DNA of 64,000 nucleotides from a bacterium (GCA_037129835.1 JBAXUE010000002.1:66334-130333); one strand, 5' to 3'; positions 25,147 through 36,651 are shown, counted from the first letter of the stretch. The notes: generated by a model from the sequence alone, not told the origin. Numbers and translations: made by a program.

Positions 25147-26121
25147 TTACTTTTGTACATGTTCCTCTCCTTTTGCATGAATTATATTTTCCATATTATC
25201 ATACAGATAAACAAAATATTTTTCTATTTCATTCATTTTATTTGGTAACATATTTTTTGTAAGAGCTGCCGATTCTGCAAAAAACTCTTCGAAATATTCT
25301 GCATATTCAAGAATAAAGTCGTCAGTGAACTCTCCCTTAATTATACATTCATCATAGAGTGGTTTGATCGCCTTTACTCTGGTCTTTAGATATGGGGTAA
25401 AGGGATTATCTATTAGATATCCCATCCCTGGTGGGTTGTAATACATATTGCCTTCGTCATCTTTGATAAAGAAGAACTGTCCGAATTCGGTATTTGCTAG
25501 TATTCCTCGTTCTAGTTGAGCGCCAGTCCCGTTTTCTGTAGCGTAAAGATTTTTAAAATAAAAATGTCCGATTTCATGTGCAAGTAGATATTCGAGTAGC
25601 GCCTCTTCTTTGTTATCTGCTTCTTTTACTACATCTGGCATCTCGTATGGATAGTCATAGGTATCAAATAGCTTTATATCGCCAAAGTGCTCGCTTTCTC
25701 TGTCGGAAATGGCATGTGCCCGTACCCTCAACCACTCATCACCCTCAGGTAGCTCGTTGTTTGCTTTGGCTTTTTCGTATTCTTCCCTGTTATAAAGCTT
25801 CTTTTCATTCTCTATTCCTGGGGTGTAGACATACATTATTACATTATCATAGATTATTTTTGATATACCGACTTTTTTAAAATCCTCTAATTCGTAATTT
25901 CTCGCGATGAACTCCAAGGCGCTCTCTCCTAGATTCTTGTTTTCTTCAAATCCTTCGAAACCGAGATATGCTCGAAAATCATCTAGCTTCTCCTTTGATA
26001 TTTCATCATGAGTTTCCGTATAGACACTACTAGTAGGCGCACTTTCTTTAAGTTTTGTTCTTTCCCACAGCTTACTAGCCTCACGCTCAGCAGGTCCTAT
26101 TGGTAATGGTATATGTTCCAC
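25147..26121 (-). CDS. hypothetical HExxH protein (324 aa)
   Basis: YLLAHEIGHFYF motif. Acidic, with no signal peptide or TM. Confidence 0.55.
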   Translation of the reverse strand: MEHIPLPIGPAEREASKLWERTKLKESAPTSSVYTETHDEISKEKLDDFRAYLGFEGFEENKNLGESALEFIARNYELEDFKKVGISKIIYDNVIMYVYTPGIENEKKLYNREEYEKAKANNELPEGDEWLRVRAHAISDRESEHFGDIKLFDTYDYPYEMPDVVKEADNKEEALLEYLLAHEIGHFYFKNLYATENGTGAQLERGILANTEFGQFFFIKDDEGNMYYNPPGMGYLIDNPFTPYLKTRVKAIKPLYDECIIKGEFTDDFILEYAEYFEEFFAESAALTKNMLPNKMNEIEKYFVYLYDNMENIIHAKGEEHVQK

Positions 26122-26140: not shown

Positions 26141-26812
26141 TTATTTCTCTTTCGTCACCAAGAACGGAAAAACTCTGTTCATTTCATCGTTCCGAAGGAT
26201 AAATGCCGCCTCGAGGAAAGTATACAGTAAATCTTTTGTATTTTTCAGTACATCAGCACTACAAAAGACGACGAAATCAGCTTCGTTTATCTCTGAGGGC
26301 GATTGGATGTGGATCTTGTTTCTCAAGTTCTTGAGCTGTTTCAAATCATTTCGATAAAAGGCAAATGACAGCCCGAATGTCTGCTCCTGCGCAGACTTAT
26401 AGAGTAAGCTCTTAAAATCATGGATATCGTCATAGCTGGCACCTGTTTCTTTGTGCTGGATATACAGAATAGACTCTATTATTAGTGCCGATATCAGAAC
26501 AAATGTCTTCACATTCTGCCCATAGAGAGAGCTGGTGAGATATAGCTGCTTGGTGCATTCGTCTAGATAGTGAAGATATTGGAGATTATAGGCGATGTTA
26601 CTAAAAGCAGCATACTTTGGGTCATCATCAGAAAATTCGTAATCTATCAGCCGTGGGAATATAGTACTGCGATAGAAATCTATTGAGTTTGGCAGAAACT
26701 TGTTCGAACCCTCCTCTTTGGAACAAACCCGACACAAGATATTAGGCTTGTCTGGATTGTACAAGTCCTGCTTTACAAAGCCTGAATTGCTGTGTTGTTC
26801 TGTTTTAGTCAT
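26141..26812 (-). CDS. hypothetical alpha-helical protein (223 aa)
   Basis: Intact ORF flanking the DUF262-HNH genes. Contains LKNLRNKIHIQ (see rejected HEPN idea). Confidence 0.5.
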   Translation of the reverse strand: MTKTEQHSNSGFVKQDLYNPDKPNILCRVCSKEEGSNKFLPNSIDFYRSTIFPRLIDYEFSDDDPKYAAFSNIAYNLQYLHYLDECTKQLYLTSSLYGQNVKTFVLISALIIESILYIQHKETGASYDDIHDFKSLLYKSAQEQTFGLSFAFYRNDLKQLKNLRNKIHIQSPSEINEADFVVFCSADVLKNTKDLLYTFLEAAFILRNDEMNRVFPFLVTKEK

Positions 26813-26873: not shown

Positions 26874-28229
26874 CTAGTCTCTGCCACCCCTTTGTCTATT
26901 ACAATATCGGTGGACTAATCTGGCGTTTGATAGCTTGGTTTCTCCACCTCGCCAGTAAAACTCAATATGATCAACCTCAGAATCGTCTAAAACACGTATT
27001 TTTTGACCACATATTTTACAGGTTGAATCAGTGTCAAAAAGTTGCTTTTTCTCGTCGTGTGAATAGTTTCTTGTCTGTGACTTGGAATAATCTACGATTT
27101 TCCTCAAAGATTCTAGCCATTTCTCAAATCTGTATTGCACATTTTCTGGCTTATCTGTTGATGACTTCAAGGAATCTTCAAATTTCTTGACAGCTGTCAT
27201 TAAGTGTAAAAGTTCTTCGCGAATAGAATCAAGGTGAGGGATAATTTCGTTTTTTTGATACATCGTGAAACCCCACATTACGATGTCAAATAAGCCTTTG
27301 TTTATTTTTGTATTTTCCCACTTTCCGTTTGAGTCAGATTCTTCGCCTACAACAAACCTACGAAAAGCATTGTCACCAAATACTGAGCGAGTTAGGTCAA
27401 CAGATTTTTTAAAAACCTCACGAAGTTCTTTTGCTTTTTCTTCATTTAGATTTTGGTTATTATGCATTTCTTGATTTAGAAACTGTCTCATGGGTGCTTT
27501 GTATTTTAAGTATGAGTTATTATAAAAAGCGAAAAATCGTAATAAAAGCTCTCTATCAATCATTCTTATGGACATAGCTGGTGATTTTAATAATGTTTGA
27601 TATTCTTTATTTTCGGCAAGCTCGATTAGTAAGTCGTTATATTTTCCACGGTAAATACAGTTTCTGAGTTCCTGGTCGTTCAGCTTCACTGCGCCAGTAT
27701 TTAGTCTTTCGAAAACCTCAAATCTAACATTGATATCAGAATCCTTTTTGATTCTGATAAATGGTATAAGATAAGAATCAACTTTTCGCTGTGTTATTTT
27801 GTCTAGTTCCTTAAATGATTTCCTGTTTAGTCCTGTCAAAACCTTTAATCCCGAAAGGGCAAATTTTTCGTGCTTGTCTTGAAAGTACCCGTCCTTAAAA
27901 GAAAAGATAGAAATTAGTCTTTGTTGCCCGTCTATTACTGATTGGGTACCGTCATCTTCTTCGGCAGTGTATATTACTGGTATCGGGACTCCCAAGAGAA
28001 TAGATTCTATCAGTCTACTAGCTTTGCTTTTATCCCAGACATATCCTCTTTGAAAGTATGGTCTTACATCAAGTTCCCCTGCCTTGTAATCAGAATATAA
28101 GTCTTTTATGGCTCTACTGGGGTTGTCAAAGGTAATTCTTCTTTCATCCTCAGGTATATCAAAAACCAGTGGTTCGTTGTCATTATTGTCTTCTTCAAGA
28201 ATAACGTCATTATTATCTATTACCGTCAT
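26874..28229 (-). CDS. DUF262 (ParB-like NTPase) plus C-terminal HNH nuclease, GmrSD-like
   Basis: RPYFQRGYVW...VIDGQQRLISI (DUF262 DGQQR motif). C-terminus CKICGQ...VDHIEFYWRGGETKLSNARLVHRYCN (HNH). Confidence 0.8.
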   Translation of the reverse strand: MTVIDNNDVILEEDNNDNEPLVFDIPEDERRITFDNPSRAIKDLYSDYKAGELDVRPYFQRGYVWDKSKASRLIESILLGVPIPVIYTAEEDDGTQSVIDGQQRLISIFSFKDGYFQDKHEKFALSGLKVLTGLNRKSFKELDKITQRKVDSYLIPFIRIKKDSDINVRFEVFERLNTGAVKLNDQELRNCIYRGKYNDLLIELAENKEYQTLLKSPAMSIRMIDRELLLRFFAFYNNSYLKYKAPMRQFLNQEMHNNQNLNEEKAKELREVFKKSVDLTRSVFGDNAFRRFVVGEESDSNGKWENTKINKGLFDIVMWGFTMYQKNEIIPHLDSIREELLHLMTAVKKFEDSLKSSTDKPENVQYRFEKWLESLRKIVDYSKSQTRNYSHDEKKQLFDTDSTCKICGQKIRVLDDSEVDHIEFYWRGGETKLSNARLVHRYCNRQRGGRD

Positions 28230-28285
28230 AATTCTCCTTTACTTTGATCTATCGTTTTTGCTTATCAAGTTTTTTCATTGGTTCG

Positions 28286-29449
28286 CTATTTATTTCCCTT
28301 GGCACGGTTATGTGTTTTACAAAGCATCTCACAGTTATTGATATCTGTGGCGCCACCTTTACTCCATGCTGTAACATGGTCAGCATCCATTTCGGTAAGA
28401 CTCCAGATTTTTGTCTTGTTGGCGTCGTGACCGATTACGCAATTCGGACAATTTGAAATGCCTTTAGATTTAGCGGTCGTAGTTTGTGACGAATATACCG
28501 CTTTTTTAGTTGCCTCATCAAAAACACGAACTTCAAGTAGTTTCTTTTCATTAGACCCACCTAGAATATATTCAAATATTCCCTTTCGATTTTTTATGTA
28601 TGGGTCTCCATAAAGCTTTTGTACGGCCAATGACACTTTTGCAGGATCATAGGCTTTTGTATGAAATTTTTTATAAAGTCGACCCCAATCCAGGCCTCGC
28701 ATTTCACTTTCAACATCTATAAATACACCAGAAACCCATTCTATTACGCTTTTAAAATATGCTTTTAACTCAGTGATATTGTTATCAAAGCGGTGACGAC
28801 TCATATATTCGCCGTTATTACCACAACTAATCCAGTCTAAGGCTCTCTCTAGAAATTCCTGTCTGTTGGCACTGCCAGTTACATAAGCACTCCATTTTTG
28901 AATGTTGGCATTTTGACTATTACTGAATTCCTCTTTACCAAGTGTGACAAATGGACCAGAATAAACCGCATTTAATAGTTCTTGATTATTTAGCGGTACA
29001 CCGGCAATGTTTATGGTTTTGAACCACTCTTTTATTTCACTTTCTTCGCCCTCGCATTCGTATATAAGAAGCTCAGCGTTCATGATTTTAGCCTGCTTAT
29101 CTGAAGCAATTCCACTGAAGTATTGTTCCATGCCGTTTTCGTCTTTTATGGCAAATTTGTTATAAACGAATCGTCCGATACTAGTGATACGTTGTTGTCC
29201 GTCCAATACTTCTAAGTTGTCAGTGCTCACTTTGTTAAAATATATTAAGCCCAGCGGATAGTCTTTGAGTAATGAGTCAATGACCGCGACGTCTTTTTTA
29301 CCATCAGCATAGATGTAGTTACGTTGATACTCTGGCTGAATAGTGAGCTTGCCAGAGAGTCCGAACAAACCCTTGCCTTCATGCTGGTTATACACAAATC
29401 CTTCACATATATTTCTTACGGTTATGTTAGTTACTAAAGTAGTTTTCAT
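28286..29449 (-). CDS. DUF262 (ParB-like NTPase) plus C-terminal HNH nuclease
   Basis: [11 protein letters not shown]...[12 protein letters not shown]-terminus CPNC...[26 protein letters not shown]. Its start overlaps the methyltransferase stop by 4 nt. Confidence 0.8.
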
Positions 29450-30648
29450 GCTATACCTTTCTTGTGTTTGATTAAAATCCTAGCGAATGGAACCACAACA
29501 GTTTCATCTTTTATCATATATAAATCACCGTTCACCGTTCCTCTTTTTTGCACTTCTTTCCGATACTTTTTATGCTCAGGTTTATACGGTTTGACTCCGA
29601 TGGATAAGCCCAGGTTTGCTATTCCCAAACCAATAATATCAAATTGTTCAGGAGAATATTTGTCAAGGAAACTAATTGGCACGCCCATAATACCCTTAAA
29701 GTCTCCAGGAATATGTTTAACGAAAGGAACTTCTATTGCATTAAAATTATCATAATTATCAAAAGATCTTTTAGTGCCAAATTTTATAACGTCTGACAAT
29801 TTCATTAATGGTAAGAATTCGTGAAGCCTTCCGTGGTCAAGATTAGTAAACCAGCGAACACCTTGGACTCTCGTGATGTAAACTTTCTTACCATTTTCAT
29901 CCGTCCGTATTTCGCGTACTTGCTCTAGATTGGCAATATCTTCTGGTATTTCATAAAACATTGCTCCACCATTCACTTTATGATTATTGCCAAGCCAAAT
30001 CTTGTTATCCTTAATTAATGGAAAGACTTCTTTATAAGTAATAGCGTTCATACTACCAATTATTAAGAACTTTTTTTTGTACTCAATAAGTTGTTTTAAG
30101 TACTCGCGGAACAAACTGAAAGGCGGGTTAGTTACCACTATATCAGCCTGCTTTAGTAGCTCAACACACTCGTTGCTCCGAAAATCTCCGGCTGCGTATT
30201 TATCATCGCCAAGTAAAAGCGAATAAGCATTATTGTCATGTTCTAAAAGCCATTTCACATCATTAAGGTTGGTTATGCCATCTTTATTAAGGTCTGAAAC
30301 CTCATTGATCTCAATTTTAAATGCTTTTTTATTTTTTCGATTAGAAAGTGTCTTATTTTTACCCATTTCTTCGAAACCCGGTATTTGTATCTGTGTTTGT
30401 ACAATCGGCGAACCAACGTAGCTTGTCGTTATCAACTTTTTTAAGCCAAATTCCTTAAATTTATTTGCAAAATACTTGAAGAAATTACTTTCAAATGGGT
30501 CATCGCAGTTGCAATAGACTATCTTGCCGCGAAAAACATCAGGATCGTAATCAATGTAGGCTTGGATTTCCTTCTGAATATCTTGATATTGAGTATAAAA
30601 CTCGTCGTTTTTAGTCTTTTTTGCGTTATGTAAATTTTTTTGTGCCAT
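29446..30648 (-). CDS. EcoRI-methylase-family N6-adenine DNA methyltransferase
   Basis: N-terminus [25 protein letters not shown] is typical of that family. Catalytic motif [11 protein letters not shown]. Confidence 0.8.
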
Positions 30649-30660
30649 TTAAAACCTTAT

Positions 30661-31128
30661 TTATTTTTCAAAGCAAATTGGATTAAATATCTTTTCAGGA
30701 AAATCGTTATCTCCAATTTTATATTTTAATTCACCGTTTGTTCCATGTACTGAATATTTTTCTCGATTGCGCTTTGACACAGAAATTGATTTGACTCCGG
30801 ACTGGCTAGGCCTTAACAACCTCTCAATTTCGTCATAGTTTAAGCAACAAACTCCTGCATCGTAACATACAAGTAGGACAAAAACCTTCTCAAACTTTGA
30901 TTTTAGCTCTAATAGTTTTTCGAGATGATTCTCCGAAAATGTAAAGCTCCAGGGGATTAACCGACTCTCAGTATATTTAACATATAAGCCACTTTCTCTG
31001 AGCTGAGAGAGAATCTTAAAACTAGAATTGTCATCATCAACATAATCACTAACACCAAGACATCTTTGGTCTTGAATTATTTTTAGTAAAGCTGCCCCGT
31101 AATATAGTTGATATTTAAAATTTGCCAT
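30661..31128 (-). CDS. hypothetical protein (155 aa) between the Z1 and methyltransferase genes
   Basis: Gaps of 6 nt and 12 nt to its neighbours. Has D/E...K-containing beta-strand segments (YVKYTES, VFVLLVCYD), but no secure nuclease motif. Confidence 0.55.
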   Translation of the reverse strand: MANFKYQLYYGAALLKIIQDQRCLGVSDYVDDDNSSFKILSQLRESGLYVKYTESRLIPWSFTFSENHLEKLLELKSKFEKVFVLLVCYDAGVCCLNYDEIERLLRPSQSGVKSISVSKRNREKYSVHGTNGELKYKIGDNDFPEKIFNPICFEK

Positions 31129-31134
31129 AATAAT

Positions 31135-33018
31135 TTATCTTAGCCTATAGTTTGCCTTTTTAAGGCTATCTTTAAAATAGTAAACAAATCTACACTTTCC
31201 TGCCTCGTTTCTGATCAACATAATATGGTGCTTTGCATTGGGAAAAGCGACCATTTCTGTACCACCAAAAACACCCCTACTTCTGTATAAAAAGTCCTTA
31301 TATTCAAGGTCATCTGTTTTTGAAACCATTCTTATTGGATGGAATGCTATGTCCTTGTCTGCAGTCATTCCACTGTATACAATAAAATTAATTAGAAATA
31401 GAGGCACCACACTGCCACCGTAAAGCCGGTTAACTTCTTTTAGCTTTTGGATATTACTTATTCCTTTTTTACTAATAATATCTGAAAAAATGCTAGCGTA
31501 ATCAAACATAGGAAAATACATTTCGTTTTTGTCAGTTAATATATTCTTCTTGTCGATACTAGAACTAGAGGCGGGCTTAACTCTTTGGCTTGAAATCCAA
31601 ACTGGTGCTGCACCCTCGTCATTGCTTTTTAATGATTTTAAAGATAAATCATGAAAAATAAAACAACGGTGCCAGTCCTCGAAAAGTGATTTTGGTATTG
31701 AGAGTTCAAAGAAGTCTTTGTATTTGCCTCTACTGCCGAACATTCTAGCTCTTTGGATATAAGTGTCTTGTTGAATCCTGTGTTTAGCAGTTCGTGTGAA
31801 GAACATGCCCAAAAGATTCTTTATTGTTAAGCCCCGGGAAATTATATTTCCACCAATTATTATTGTAAAAAGAGCTGGTGCATTAGTTGGGTCTTCTTCC
31901 ATTTTATTATTTGAGTTAATAACATAAACTTTTTTCTTATTAACATAATCTTTGACAAATGTTGTCACTTCTTTTGCTGCTATATCACCAAATCTTTCTT
32001 CTGCAATACTGTGTATTATTCCAAGGTAACGTTCCCATTTGGGACCCTTATTTGTATCTGCCAGTGCGTCAAAAAAATTATCTACAATTTTTTTATCTCT
32101 TTCGTGTTCACTTTTAATGCCACTTGTATGAATAATAAAAGCAAAATTAACATCATCATTATTCGCATTTTGTTCTACGAGCTTTTCCTTGTACTCGGGA
32201 TTTATATTTAAATAAGAAGCATTAACTAAAAAGCTTGCTAAAGCTTCATGTAAATATGATGGGTCATCTCCATTCTCAGGAAGTATATTCACCATGTATT
32301 CAACTTCGGTTATTTTTTCTAGATTAATTGGAAAAAAAAAGTCTTTGCCTACATAATTTTTATGAGAATCAAAAAATACCCATTCTTCAGATAAATTATC
32401 AAAAGTATTGTTAAGATCTAGTCGTGCTGGAGTGGCTGTTACCCCAACGTAGGTGCCGTCTCTTCGAAGTAATTTGCCGATTTCGTTATTAATTGCCGTT
32501 ACTTCATCTTTATTTATTTTAGAATTTGGGCTGGCATAATCAGCCTCGTCATCAATTATTATTAAACCACTTCTATTTCTTAGTTTTTCGTTTAAATTTG
32601 TTAAATTGCGGATATTTTTCTTTGAAAAAATTATAACCTGCCCATCATTTAAGTCTTCTTCAAGAAAAGCCCTGCTAGACATGGTATCTGGTGTAGGGTC
32701 GATACCTGAACTAGTAAATCTTTCGAGATTTTGAAGTTCAAGCTTTTTATTGTCATTCATGAGAATAACAATAGTGTTGTTGCCAATATCAAGTAATTTT
32801 GCTGTAAGCGATATCATCATTTCGGTTTTGCCACTTTGTGGCTCACCGTAAATCACAAATGATGTTATACCCTTTTGAATTTTTTCTACTGAATCTGAAA
32901 CAGCGTTTTCAATTTGAAAAGTATCAATACCCTTTTTATCTCTAAGGAAATTAATTCTTTTCTCATATCGGCTGTTTCTTCTATTTTCTGAGTCTCTATA
33001 ATCATCTGGATTAAACAT
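31135..33018 (-). CDS. Z1-domain protein with SF2-helicase-like ATPase core
   Basis: GEPQSGKTE (Walker A), IIIDDEADYAS (DEAD-like), VGVTATPARL, GGNIISRGLTIKNLLGMFFTR, DTYIQRARMFGSRGKY. SD GGAGAG before the ATG. Confidence 0.8.
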   Translation of the reverse strand: MFNPDDYRDSENRRNSRYEKRINFLRDKKGIDTFQIENAVSDSVEKIQKGITSFVIYGEPQSGKTEMMISLTAKLLDIGNNTIVILMNDNKKLELQNLERFTSSGIDPTPDTMSSRAFLEEDLNDGQVIIFSKKNIRNLTNLNEKLRNRSGLIIIDDEADYASPNSKINKDEVTAINNEIGKLLRRDGTYVGVTATPARLDLNNTFDNLSEEWVFFDSHKNYVGKDFFFPINLEKITEVEYMVNILPENGDDPSYLHEALASFLVNASYLNINPEYKEKLVEQNANNDDVNFAFIIHTSGIKSEHERDKKIVDNFFDALADTNKGPKWERYLGIIHSIAEERFGDIAAKEVTTFVKDYVNKKKVYVINSNNKMEEDPTNAPALFTIIIGGNIISRGLTIKNLLGMFFTRTAKHRIQQDTYIQRARMFGSRGKYKDFFELSIPKSLFEDWHRCFIFHDLSLKSLKSNDEGAAPVWISSQRVKPASSSSIDKKNILTDKNEMYFPMFDYASIFSDIISKKGISNIQKLKEVNRLYGGSVVPLFLINFIVYSGMTADKDIAFHPIRMVSKTDDLEYKDFLYRSRGVFGGTEMVAFPNAKHHIMLIRNEAGKCRFVYYFKDSLKKANYRLR

Positions 33019-33044
33019 AGCTCTCCAAATTTAATATATATTAT

Positions 33045-33073
33045 ATTCTACTCTCCTTTTGTGCTTATCGCAA
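33045..33073 (-). promoter_or_regulatory. putative sigma-70 promoter of the Z1 operon
   Basis: On the - strand: TTGCGA-17 nt-TAGAAT, about 27 nt upstream of the Z1 ATG. The -35 overlaps the small palindrome TGCTT..AAGCA. Confidence 0.4.
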
Positions 33074-33109
33074 GCATAAATTCGGTTTGACGGCTCTAGG
33101 CATCGGATA

Positions 33110-33137
33110 TTGACAACTAAAATACGCGGAGTATAAT
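33110..33137 (+). promoter_or_regulatory. consensus sigma-70 promoter (TTGACA-16 nt-TATAAT) facing away from the Z1 operon
   Basis: Exact -35 (33110-33115) and exact -10 (33132-33137) hexamers on the + strand in a non-coding gap. Confidence 0.6.
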
Positions 33138-33142
33138 TATTC

Positions 33143-33243
33143 ATGAAGAGAGCAGTAATGCCTATGTAACGCCGAGTGGAGGCACCTCGATAGAGGGCCC
33201 GTGAAGCGAGGAGCACGAGTATATAGGTCACCTCTTCTTTTTT
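33143..33243 (+). ncRNA. candidate ~100-nt small RNA (unknown class) between DUF3800 and Z1 genes
   Basis: Starts just downstream of the consensus promoter. Closing stem GAAGAG (33145-50)/CTCTTC (33232-37) is followed by T6. Inner 8-bp hairpin GCACCTCG (33182-89)/CGAGGAGC (33207-14). G+C-richer than its surroundings. The only ORF here (33031..33231 -) lacks an SD. Confidence 0.45.
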
Positions 33244-34976: not shown

Positions 34977-35546
34977 TTAATGTCCGCCGTAGACAGTGAA
35001 GCCTTTTTGTTTTAGCTCTTCGGCGAGCTTTATCTCGGCCTTTTTTGCTTCTTCTCTATTTTCTATCTTTCCTATCTTGCCGTAGAGGTCTGGGCGGAGC
35101 TTTGGATTGTCTGCCTTTCGGACCTTTACTGATGAGTTCAGCCCTGCCATGTGTTGCTCCAGTCGTATTTCTGGATCATAGATACTTTGCCCGATATATA
35201 TTTTCTTCTCGTTGTTATCTAGTTCGATAGCATATACTTGCCAAAAATCATTCTGGACCATGGGTCCAGCGATAACCATATATTTTTTTGCTTCGAGAGC
35301 GACGATAACCGCTTTTGCGGCCTCTATCGCCTCTTCGGCAGTATCATACTCTGGTAATTCTTTTGTCCATTTGGTCAGATTAGCGGGGTGACGTTCTTTG
35401 CGAACGCTAGTCACAAACTTTTCAAAGGCTTGCTGGTGATTGCTCGTGCCATATCCGACAAATACTTTTTTCTTACCTTGGTCTATTTCAAATACGTTTA
35501 CTATGTATTTATTATCTTCCATTTTTTTGGTCTCCTGTAGCGTCAT
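34977..35546 (-). CDS. GIY-YIG-like domain protein
   Basis: The C-half WQVYAIELDNNEKKIYIGQSIYDPEIRLEQH fits GIY-YIG spacing. The N-half has no assignment. Confidence 0.5.
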   Translation of the reverse strand: MTLQETKKMEDNKYIVNVFEIDQGKKKVFVGYGTSNHQQAFEKFVTSVRKERHPANLTKWTKELPEYDTAEEAIEAAKAVIVALEAKKYMVIAGPMVQNDFWQVYAIELDNNEKKIYIGQSIYDPEIRLEQHMAGLNSSVKVRKADNPKLRPDLYGKIGKIENREEAKKAEIKLAEELKQKGFTVYGGH

Positions 35547-35577: not shown

Positions 35578-36651
35578 TTATTTATCCCAAACGCAGCTAC
35601 TCCCAAAGTGTCCGTGCTTTGCGGTTTCTAGATACATTGGCTTTTTTAGTTTTAGAAAACTGATGATTCCCCGAGGGGTCAAGTCGTACTCGTTCGATCC
35701 CAGTAGGTTTACCTCGGTTCTGTTATCAATAATAGCGATGGCCATCACCGGCTCTGCGACACCGATACTATAAGCAAGCTTCACGAGCACTTCATGGGCA
35801 TTTTCTTTGCGGAGATAGTCTACGGCGATACGGCGCGCCATATAGGCAGCGCTTCTGTCTACCTTCGTGGCGTCTTTGCCACTAAAACAGCCACCTCCTA
35901 TGGGAATCTGAGGACCGTAATTGTCTACTGCTAGCTTGCGACCGGTGAGACCAGTGTCGGCGGTAAAGCCTCCTACTACAAATTCCCCTGTCGGGTTAAT
36001 GTGAATATGTTTTGGTTCAAGTGTTTCCGCTAATATTCTCAGGGGTGTAAAGTCTGCGCCTTCAAGATGCTGGGCACTGATGACTACTGTGTCTACTTTA
36101 CCATTTTCACCCAACGTTACTTGACTTTTCGCATCTGGACCGAAACCTTTCGGTAAATTCTTCATCAGTTGTCTGGCTAAATATAGCTCCTGCGGGATCA
36201 TTTCTTCGTTTTCATCGCAGGCATATCCGACCATGATTCCTTGGTCCCCCGCCCCACCAGTATCTACTCCTTGGGCGATTTCTGGGCTTTGATGAACGAT
36301 ATTTATGTGTATCTCGAGTTCGTCAGAATATCCGATTTCTGAATAAATATTTTGTACAATATTTTTGACGTCTACTTTTGCACATGATGTCACTTCTCCG
36401 GTGATATATATGTGCCCATGACCTCCCATCGTCTCTATCGCTACCCTACTTTCTGGGTCTTGTCTTAGATATTCGTCTAGTAATCCGTCGGATATTTGGT
36501 CGCAGACTTTATCGGGGTGTCCAGGGCTGACGCACTCGGCTGTCCGTATCCCCTTCTTGCTATAATATTCTACTTTTTCTTTTCGCGAGTTTATCGCCGT
36601 CATCGCTTCTTTCACTACTTCCTCCTTTGTCTTACCATGGGTATCGATCAT
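35578..36651 (-). CDS. metK: S-adenosylmethionine synthetase
   Basis: GHPDKVCDQISD, GAGDQGIMVGYA, GGGCFSGKDATKVDRSAAY. Confidence 0.95.
   Translation of the reverse strand: MIDTHGKTKEEVVKEAMTAINSRKEKVEYYSKKGIRTAECVSPGHPDKVCDQISDGLLDEYLRQDPESRVAIETMGGHGHIYITGEVTSCAKVDVKNIVQNIYSEIGYSDELEIHINIVHQSPEIAQGVDTGGAGDQGIMVGYACDENEEMIPQELYLARQLMKNLPKGFGPDAKSQVTLGENGKVDTVVISAQHLEGADFTPLRILAETLEPKHIHINPTGEFVVGGFTADTGLTGRKLAVDNYGPQIPIGGGCFSGKDATKVDRSAAYMARRIAVDYLRKENAHEVLVKLAYSIGVAEPVMAIAIIDNRTEVNLLGSNEYDLTPRGIISFLKLKKPMYLETAKHGHFGSSCVWDK

Follow-up and report, generated by a model that had tools for sequence, protein, structure and literature searches.

Five adjacent genes of a metagenome-assembled bacterial contig: a probable stack of three restriction-type defence modules

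Based on two locus surveys combined with domain and structure comparisons, we propose that a cluster of five genes in the bacterial DNA analysed here (the window, 64,000 nucleotides (nt) of a 372,584-bp metagenome-assembled contig) probably consists of three independent anti-phage defence modules of the restriction type, stacked head-to-tail on one strand. As judged from sequence comparison, each module is of a known or predicted kind and separately mobile: module A comprises a Z1 ATPase and a small partner protein, module B a DNA methylase and a nuclease, and module C a second nuclease. We infer the biochemical activities of all three modules, whereas the gene anatomy, folds, homologies and co-occurrence pattern are directly observed. 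The first-pass annotation had described the five genes as one system of new composition; comparative genomics instead splits them into the three modules. Read in this way, the cluster does not amount to a defence system of a new kind and should therefore not be carried forward as one.

Listing of the open reading frames (ORFs) yields five, all on the minus strand, in a 6.1-kb cluster (26874-33018), with intergenic distances of 6, 12, -4 and 56 nt as calculated from the ORF coordinates. Coordinates and spacings reproduce those first reported, and a Pfam scan agrees with the earlier domain calls, i.e. EcoRI_methylase for the methylase, GmrSD_N/DUF262 plus HNH in two proteins, and no family for the 155-amino acid (aa) protein. 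The array is composed as follows, in order of transcription:

33019-33241, minus strand: 223-nt upstream intergenic region, likely the promoter region of the array (consensus matches)
31135-33018, minus strand: 627-aa Z1 ATPase, module A (ORF listing)
30661-31128, minus strand: 155-aa restriction endonuclease-fold (RE-fold) protein, module A (ORF listing)
29446-30648, minus strand: 400-aa EcoRI-family (NPPF) N6-adenine DNA methyltransferase, module B gene 1 (PF13651, PADLOC MTase_II)
28286-29449, minus strand: 387-aa ParB-like DUF262 plus HNH predicted endonuclease, module B gene 2 (PF03235 plus PF01844, PADLOC REase_II)
26874-28229, minus strand: 451-aa protein with NsnA-like ParB-DUF262 plus ParBDB region and C-terminal HNH, module C (PF03235, HNH, PADLOC NsnA)

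Gene co-occurrence and the two nucleases

The surveys, covering the best 80 loci each (160 in total), separate the modules. Modules A and B were found together in 0 of the 160 loci. Co-occurrence of the genes elsewhere, which the first-pass annotation had set as a condition for a single system, was likewise not seen, as none of these loci holds all five. Among the 80 module A loci, none contained a gene related to the EcoRI-type methylase or to one of the two DUF262-HNH nucleases, and a second DUF262 gene was present in 0 of 72 relatives in the module B survey.

Module B is itself a conserved pair. The 400-aa methylase, which contains the NPPF motif noted earlier, matches PF13651 EcoRI_methylase (1.1e-122) and the PADLOC model MTase_II (PDLC03297, 4.6e-102), both over its full length. 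The 387-aa protein combines PF03235 (1.1e-21) with PF01844 and matches PADLOC REase_II (PDLC03418, 8.2e-84), residues 8-387 falling on model positions 7-372 of 372. The first-pass annotation knew of no named system and had listed assignment to a named one by standard tools as refuting its reading; REBASE-derived PADLOC models match three of the proteins, with Type II assignments for the methylase and the 387-aa protein. The last 4 nt of the methylase gene are shared with the start of the 387-aa gene. In the scan with the methylase as query, a DUF262-HNH gene lies downstream of the methylase in 72 of the 80 metagenomic loci, directly adjacent in 56 of the 72 and separated by an insert of 0.15-4 kb in the other 16, and in 7 of the 8 loci without it the contig stops at most 175 nt from the methylase. 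Small plasmids from Moraxella, Enterococcus, Pediococcus and Pseudarthrobacter, i.e. four different genera, carry homologues of the 387-aa protein (60-70% identical) directly behind an EcoRI-family methylase, and the 4-nt overlap is repeated in loci L083 and L084.

The 387-aa protein is hence predicted to act as restriction partner to the methylase. In module B, the methylase would mark host sites, and the ParB-like NTPase/HNH enzyme would cut DNA without the mark, i.e. classical methylase-protected restriction. If a ParB-like NTPase plus HNH protein is the methylase-protected nuclease in a restriction-modification (R-M) pair carried by plasmids, the usual role of DUF262 proteins, the reading of modified DNA, would be inverted. 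Biochemical characterisation of such an enzyme paired with a methylase was not found in the literature. As a separate observation, the loci with inserts include L151, L153, L155, L159, L162 and L165-L167, and in L153 (1250-2194) and L155 (1313-2257) the insert is a second EcoRI-family methylase in tandem, 42% identical.

The 451-aa protein of module C matches PF03235 (9.8e-32) and HNH (2.3e-8) as well as the PADLOC models NsnA (1.7e-91, residues 18-379 on model positions 32-383 of 385) and PD-T4-2_A (5e-51). This protein and the 387-aa protein had been called paralogues. They are colinear (E 2e-15), but only 24% identical and split by PADLOC into different families, the 387-aa protein into REase_II and the 451-aa protein into NsnA; they are distant homologues rather than recent paralogues. 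A C. perfringens plasmid homologue of the 451-aa protein, HNH included, is annotated as solitary. In the closest plasmid relatives (A. baumannii pAB1 and Bradyrhizobium p1) the HNH is absent, and the next gene encodes a HEPN protein (234-237 aa). Among the neighbours of the 451-aa gene, NsnB, NsnC and PD-T4-2_B gave no match, the downstream ORFs at 26141-26812 and 25147-26121 matched nothing in PADLOC, Pfam or NCBIfam, and a search of viral contigs with the 451-aa protein returned no match. The first of these ORFs (orf223, minus strand) starts 61 nt past the 451-aa gene, is close in size to the HEPN proteins and includes the sequence LRNKIH; BLAST detects no similarity between it and the plasmid HEPN proteins. 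The best reading of the 451-aa protein is a single-protein, GmrSD-like nuclease. Most likely it would recognise foreign DNA by some feature, a modification being the probable one, and would thereby complement module B.

The Z1 motor and its 155-aa partner

The motifs GEPQSGKT, DDEAD, TATPARL and QRARMFGSRG, on which the initial description of the motor had relied, are all present in the 627-aa translation. The AlphaFold model of this protein (predicted local distance difference test (pLDDT) score 86.6) resembles translocases of double-stranded nucleic acids, with the HsdR motor of EcoR124I as the best Foldseek match. Compared to N.NgoAVII (629 aa, from an operon taken from a gonococcal record), residues 36-442 align with 26% identity (E 5e-28), whereas the C-terminal domains do not align.

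The 155-aa ORF has no match in Pfam, PADLOC, NCBIfam or the PDB, neither as a single sequence nor as a 65-sequence profile, and a single-sequence homology search retrieved only the query itself, such that a profile from the genomic loci was required. Clustered at 50% identity, the family has 884 representatives. Almost all of them stand alone, at 145-160 aa in length. The invariant residues of the family are G11, K51, R56, P59, W60, C88, G92 and Y125. Fold comparison alone identified the protein: the structure model generated from 119 homologues (pLDDT 89) adopts a PD-(D/E)xK fold, with the Holliday-junction resolvases Hjc and RecU as best matches. The family has N/S and Y, and no acidic residues, at the two positions that by topology would correspond to the metal-binding residues D33 and E46 of Hjc. 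The 155-aa protein may be a non-catalytic DNA sensor or possess a non-canonical active site. A firm claim that the copy in the window is an inactivated nuclease (E7Q, E71K and D91A relative to the family consensus) was dropped: positions 7 and 71 are variable among the closer relatives in its own clade, and L172 likewise lacks D91.

In other loci the module A pair commonly resides next to a methylase of its own. An N6_N4_Mtase (PF01555) methylase of ~423 aa with an SPPY motif is present in 67 of the 80 module A loci and directly flanks the pair in 54 (32 upstream, 22 downstream). MORC-like GHKL ATPases adjoin the pair in some loci (e.g. L018, L020 and L021), further neighbours include integrases, CBASS-like and Gabija-like genes, and the distribution is patchy across phyla. 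The clade that includes the window copy, in a tree without support values, is without a methylase of its own: the N6_N4 methylase hidden Markov model has no match in the loci of this clade or in the window, and Pfam scans of the neighbours in the clade detected no DNA methylase. These neighbours comprise housekeeping and CBASS-like genes as well as a gene for a phage portal; L086 has a Gabija-like OLD ATPase and a UvrD helicase as neighbours, and in L087 a methylase-less copy has tgt on one side and a gene for an OB-fold anticodon-binding domain on the other.

Transcription, coupling and the surroundings of the array

The array is probably co-transcribed from a single promoter as a defence-island stack. 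Within 33019-33241, a promoter-like TTGCGA-17-TAGAAT is located at 33073-33045 and GGAGAG precedes the ATG, both being consensus matches only. The same region shows no structure in excess of shuffled sequence (z -0.15 and -0.21) and no match in an Rfam search.

Several points weigh against full independence of the modules. No terminator-like site was found between the array genes. The methylase starts 12 nt past the 155-aa ORF, an unusually tight spacing compared to upstream spacers of 87-662 nt on the plasmids. Transcription from upstream therefore appears to have captured the module B pair, and this is the chief argument that the modules are functionally coupled to some degree. In addition, the surveys stop at the best 80 loci each and used a tblastn threshold of 1e-5, which very distant analogues would escape.

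Coupling could take the form of a hybrid system, with the methylase of module B also serving module A. Such an arrangement is compatible with the close spacing and with the methylase-less state of the window clade, whereas modules A and B are nowhere else combined in the survey, and we consider it unlikely. That the five genes form one machine is more doubtful still: the shared strand, the spacings, the single upstream promoter-like site and the lack of terminators speak for it, whereas the five genes co-occur nowhere else examined, each sub-module is complete and mobile alone, and the HNH proteins are from two distinct families. Least probable is that module A represents a DNA repair or recombination pair, i.e. 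a branch-migration-type translocase with an Hjc/RecU-like junction-resolving protein that neighbours defence genes by chance, as the resolvase-like fold and methylase-less copies among housekeeping genes such as L087 are outweighed by the DNA methylase beside most pairs, the defence-type and mobile neighbours (MORC-like, integrase, CBASS-like and Gabija-like), the patchy distribution and the homology of the motor to an N subunit from a restriction enzyme of proven activity.

Two further observations concern the surroundings of the proposed three-module stack. Approximately 2 kb upstream of the array, a bacterial-type S-adenosylmethionine synthetase gene (35578-36651) is followed directly by a gene whose 189-aa product matches GIY-YIG weakly (34977-35546), both on the minus strand. 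In the entire window (1-64000), GATC is scarcer than expected (163 observed, 255 expected, z -5.8, maximal-order Markov model), and CTAG is over-represented. A restriction activity specific for GATC and encoded in this genome might account for the scarcity, although the signal is weak, of low power and to be taken as a hint only.

Comparison with known systems

Module A resembles a predicted type of R-M operon. Iyer, Abhiman & Aravind 2008 (PMC2292703) described a 'distinct SFII helicase' (superfamily II) with the motif DThhQXuRhFG, consistently associated with an uncharacterised RE-fold protein in R-M operons, and predicted this helicase and the adjacent RE-fold protein to be R-M components; it is on this description that we regard module A as a predicted kind. 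Common to module A and the third MORC-associated operon type of that study are the helicase motif (DTYIQRARMFG in the window) and the adjacent RE-fold protein, whereas no MORC/paraMORC and no HATPase_c were detected among the window neighbours scanned. The published RE-fold protein displays an E-D-ExK motif, in contrast to the N/S and Y of the 155-aa family at the Hjc D33/E46 positions (inferred alignment), and this 'NRE' protein may be a member of the 155-aa family. An experimental study of the module A pair was not found in the literature.

CglI, NgoAVII and BceSIV are ATP-dependent R-M systems of M, R and N subunits (Zaremba et al. 2014, PMC4267653). Beyond the related motor region, module A differs from CglI/NgoAVII in several respects. 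The R subunit consists of a PLD nuclease and a B3-like DNA-binding domain (PF09565 plus PF20731 in R.NgoAVII), compared to the Hjc/RecU-like 155-aa partner without Pfam match; the cognate methylase is a C5-cytosine enzyme, which the operon here lacks, while the usual methylase of the module A family is N6_N4 (SPPY); and the gene order is unlike that of module A, with the window clade being without its own methylase.

The 451-aa protein shares with Menshen the ParB-DUF262 plus ParBDB region of the sensor NsnA, matched end-to-end by the model. Menshen requires the NsnB ABC ATPase (AAA_15 plus DUF3696) and the NsnC effector immediately downstream (PMC12065111), and membership was rejected with neither found beside the 451-aa gene. 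Gene A of PD-T4-2 is matched by the 451-aa protein, and gene B is not matched among the neighbours. MZA was rejected, as the NCBIfam MzaC model scores 41 bits compared to a cut-off of 1500, with the match limited to residues 345-447.

Both HNH proteins share with GmrSD, BrxU and SspE the N-terminal DUF262 with DGxQR and FxxxN, joined by QRxxxW in the 451-aa protein, and differ from them by a classical HNH (PF01844), with no DUF1524 match at E <= 0.01. Relative to Type IV enzymes, the 451-aa protein is without a conserved methylase partner, in agreement with the module B survey and the solitary plasmid homologue, whereas the 387-aa protein is methylase-linked, the opposite logic. Module B is instead closest to the Type II R-M systems of REBASE, as methylase and 387-aa nuclease match the models full length and form a conserved, often overlapping pair, while the nuclease stands apart by its ParB-like NTPase plus HNH architecture, otherwise known from modification-dependent Type IV enzymes.
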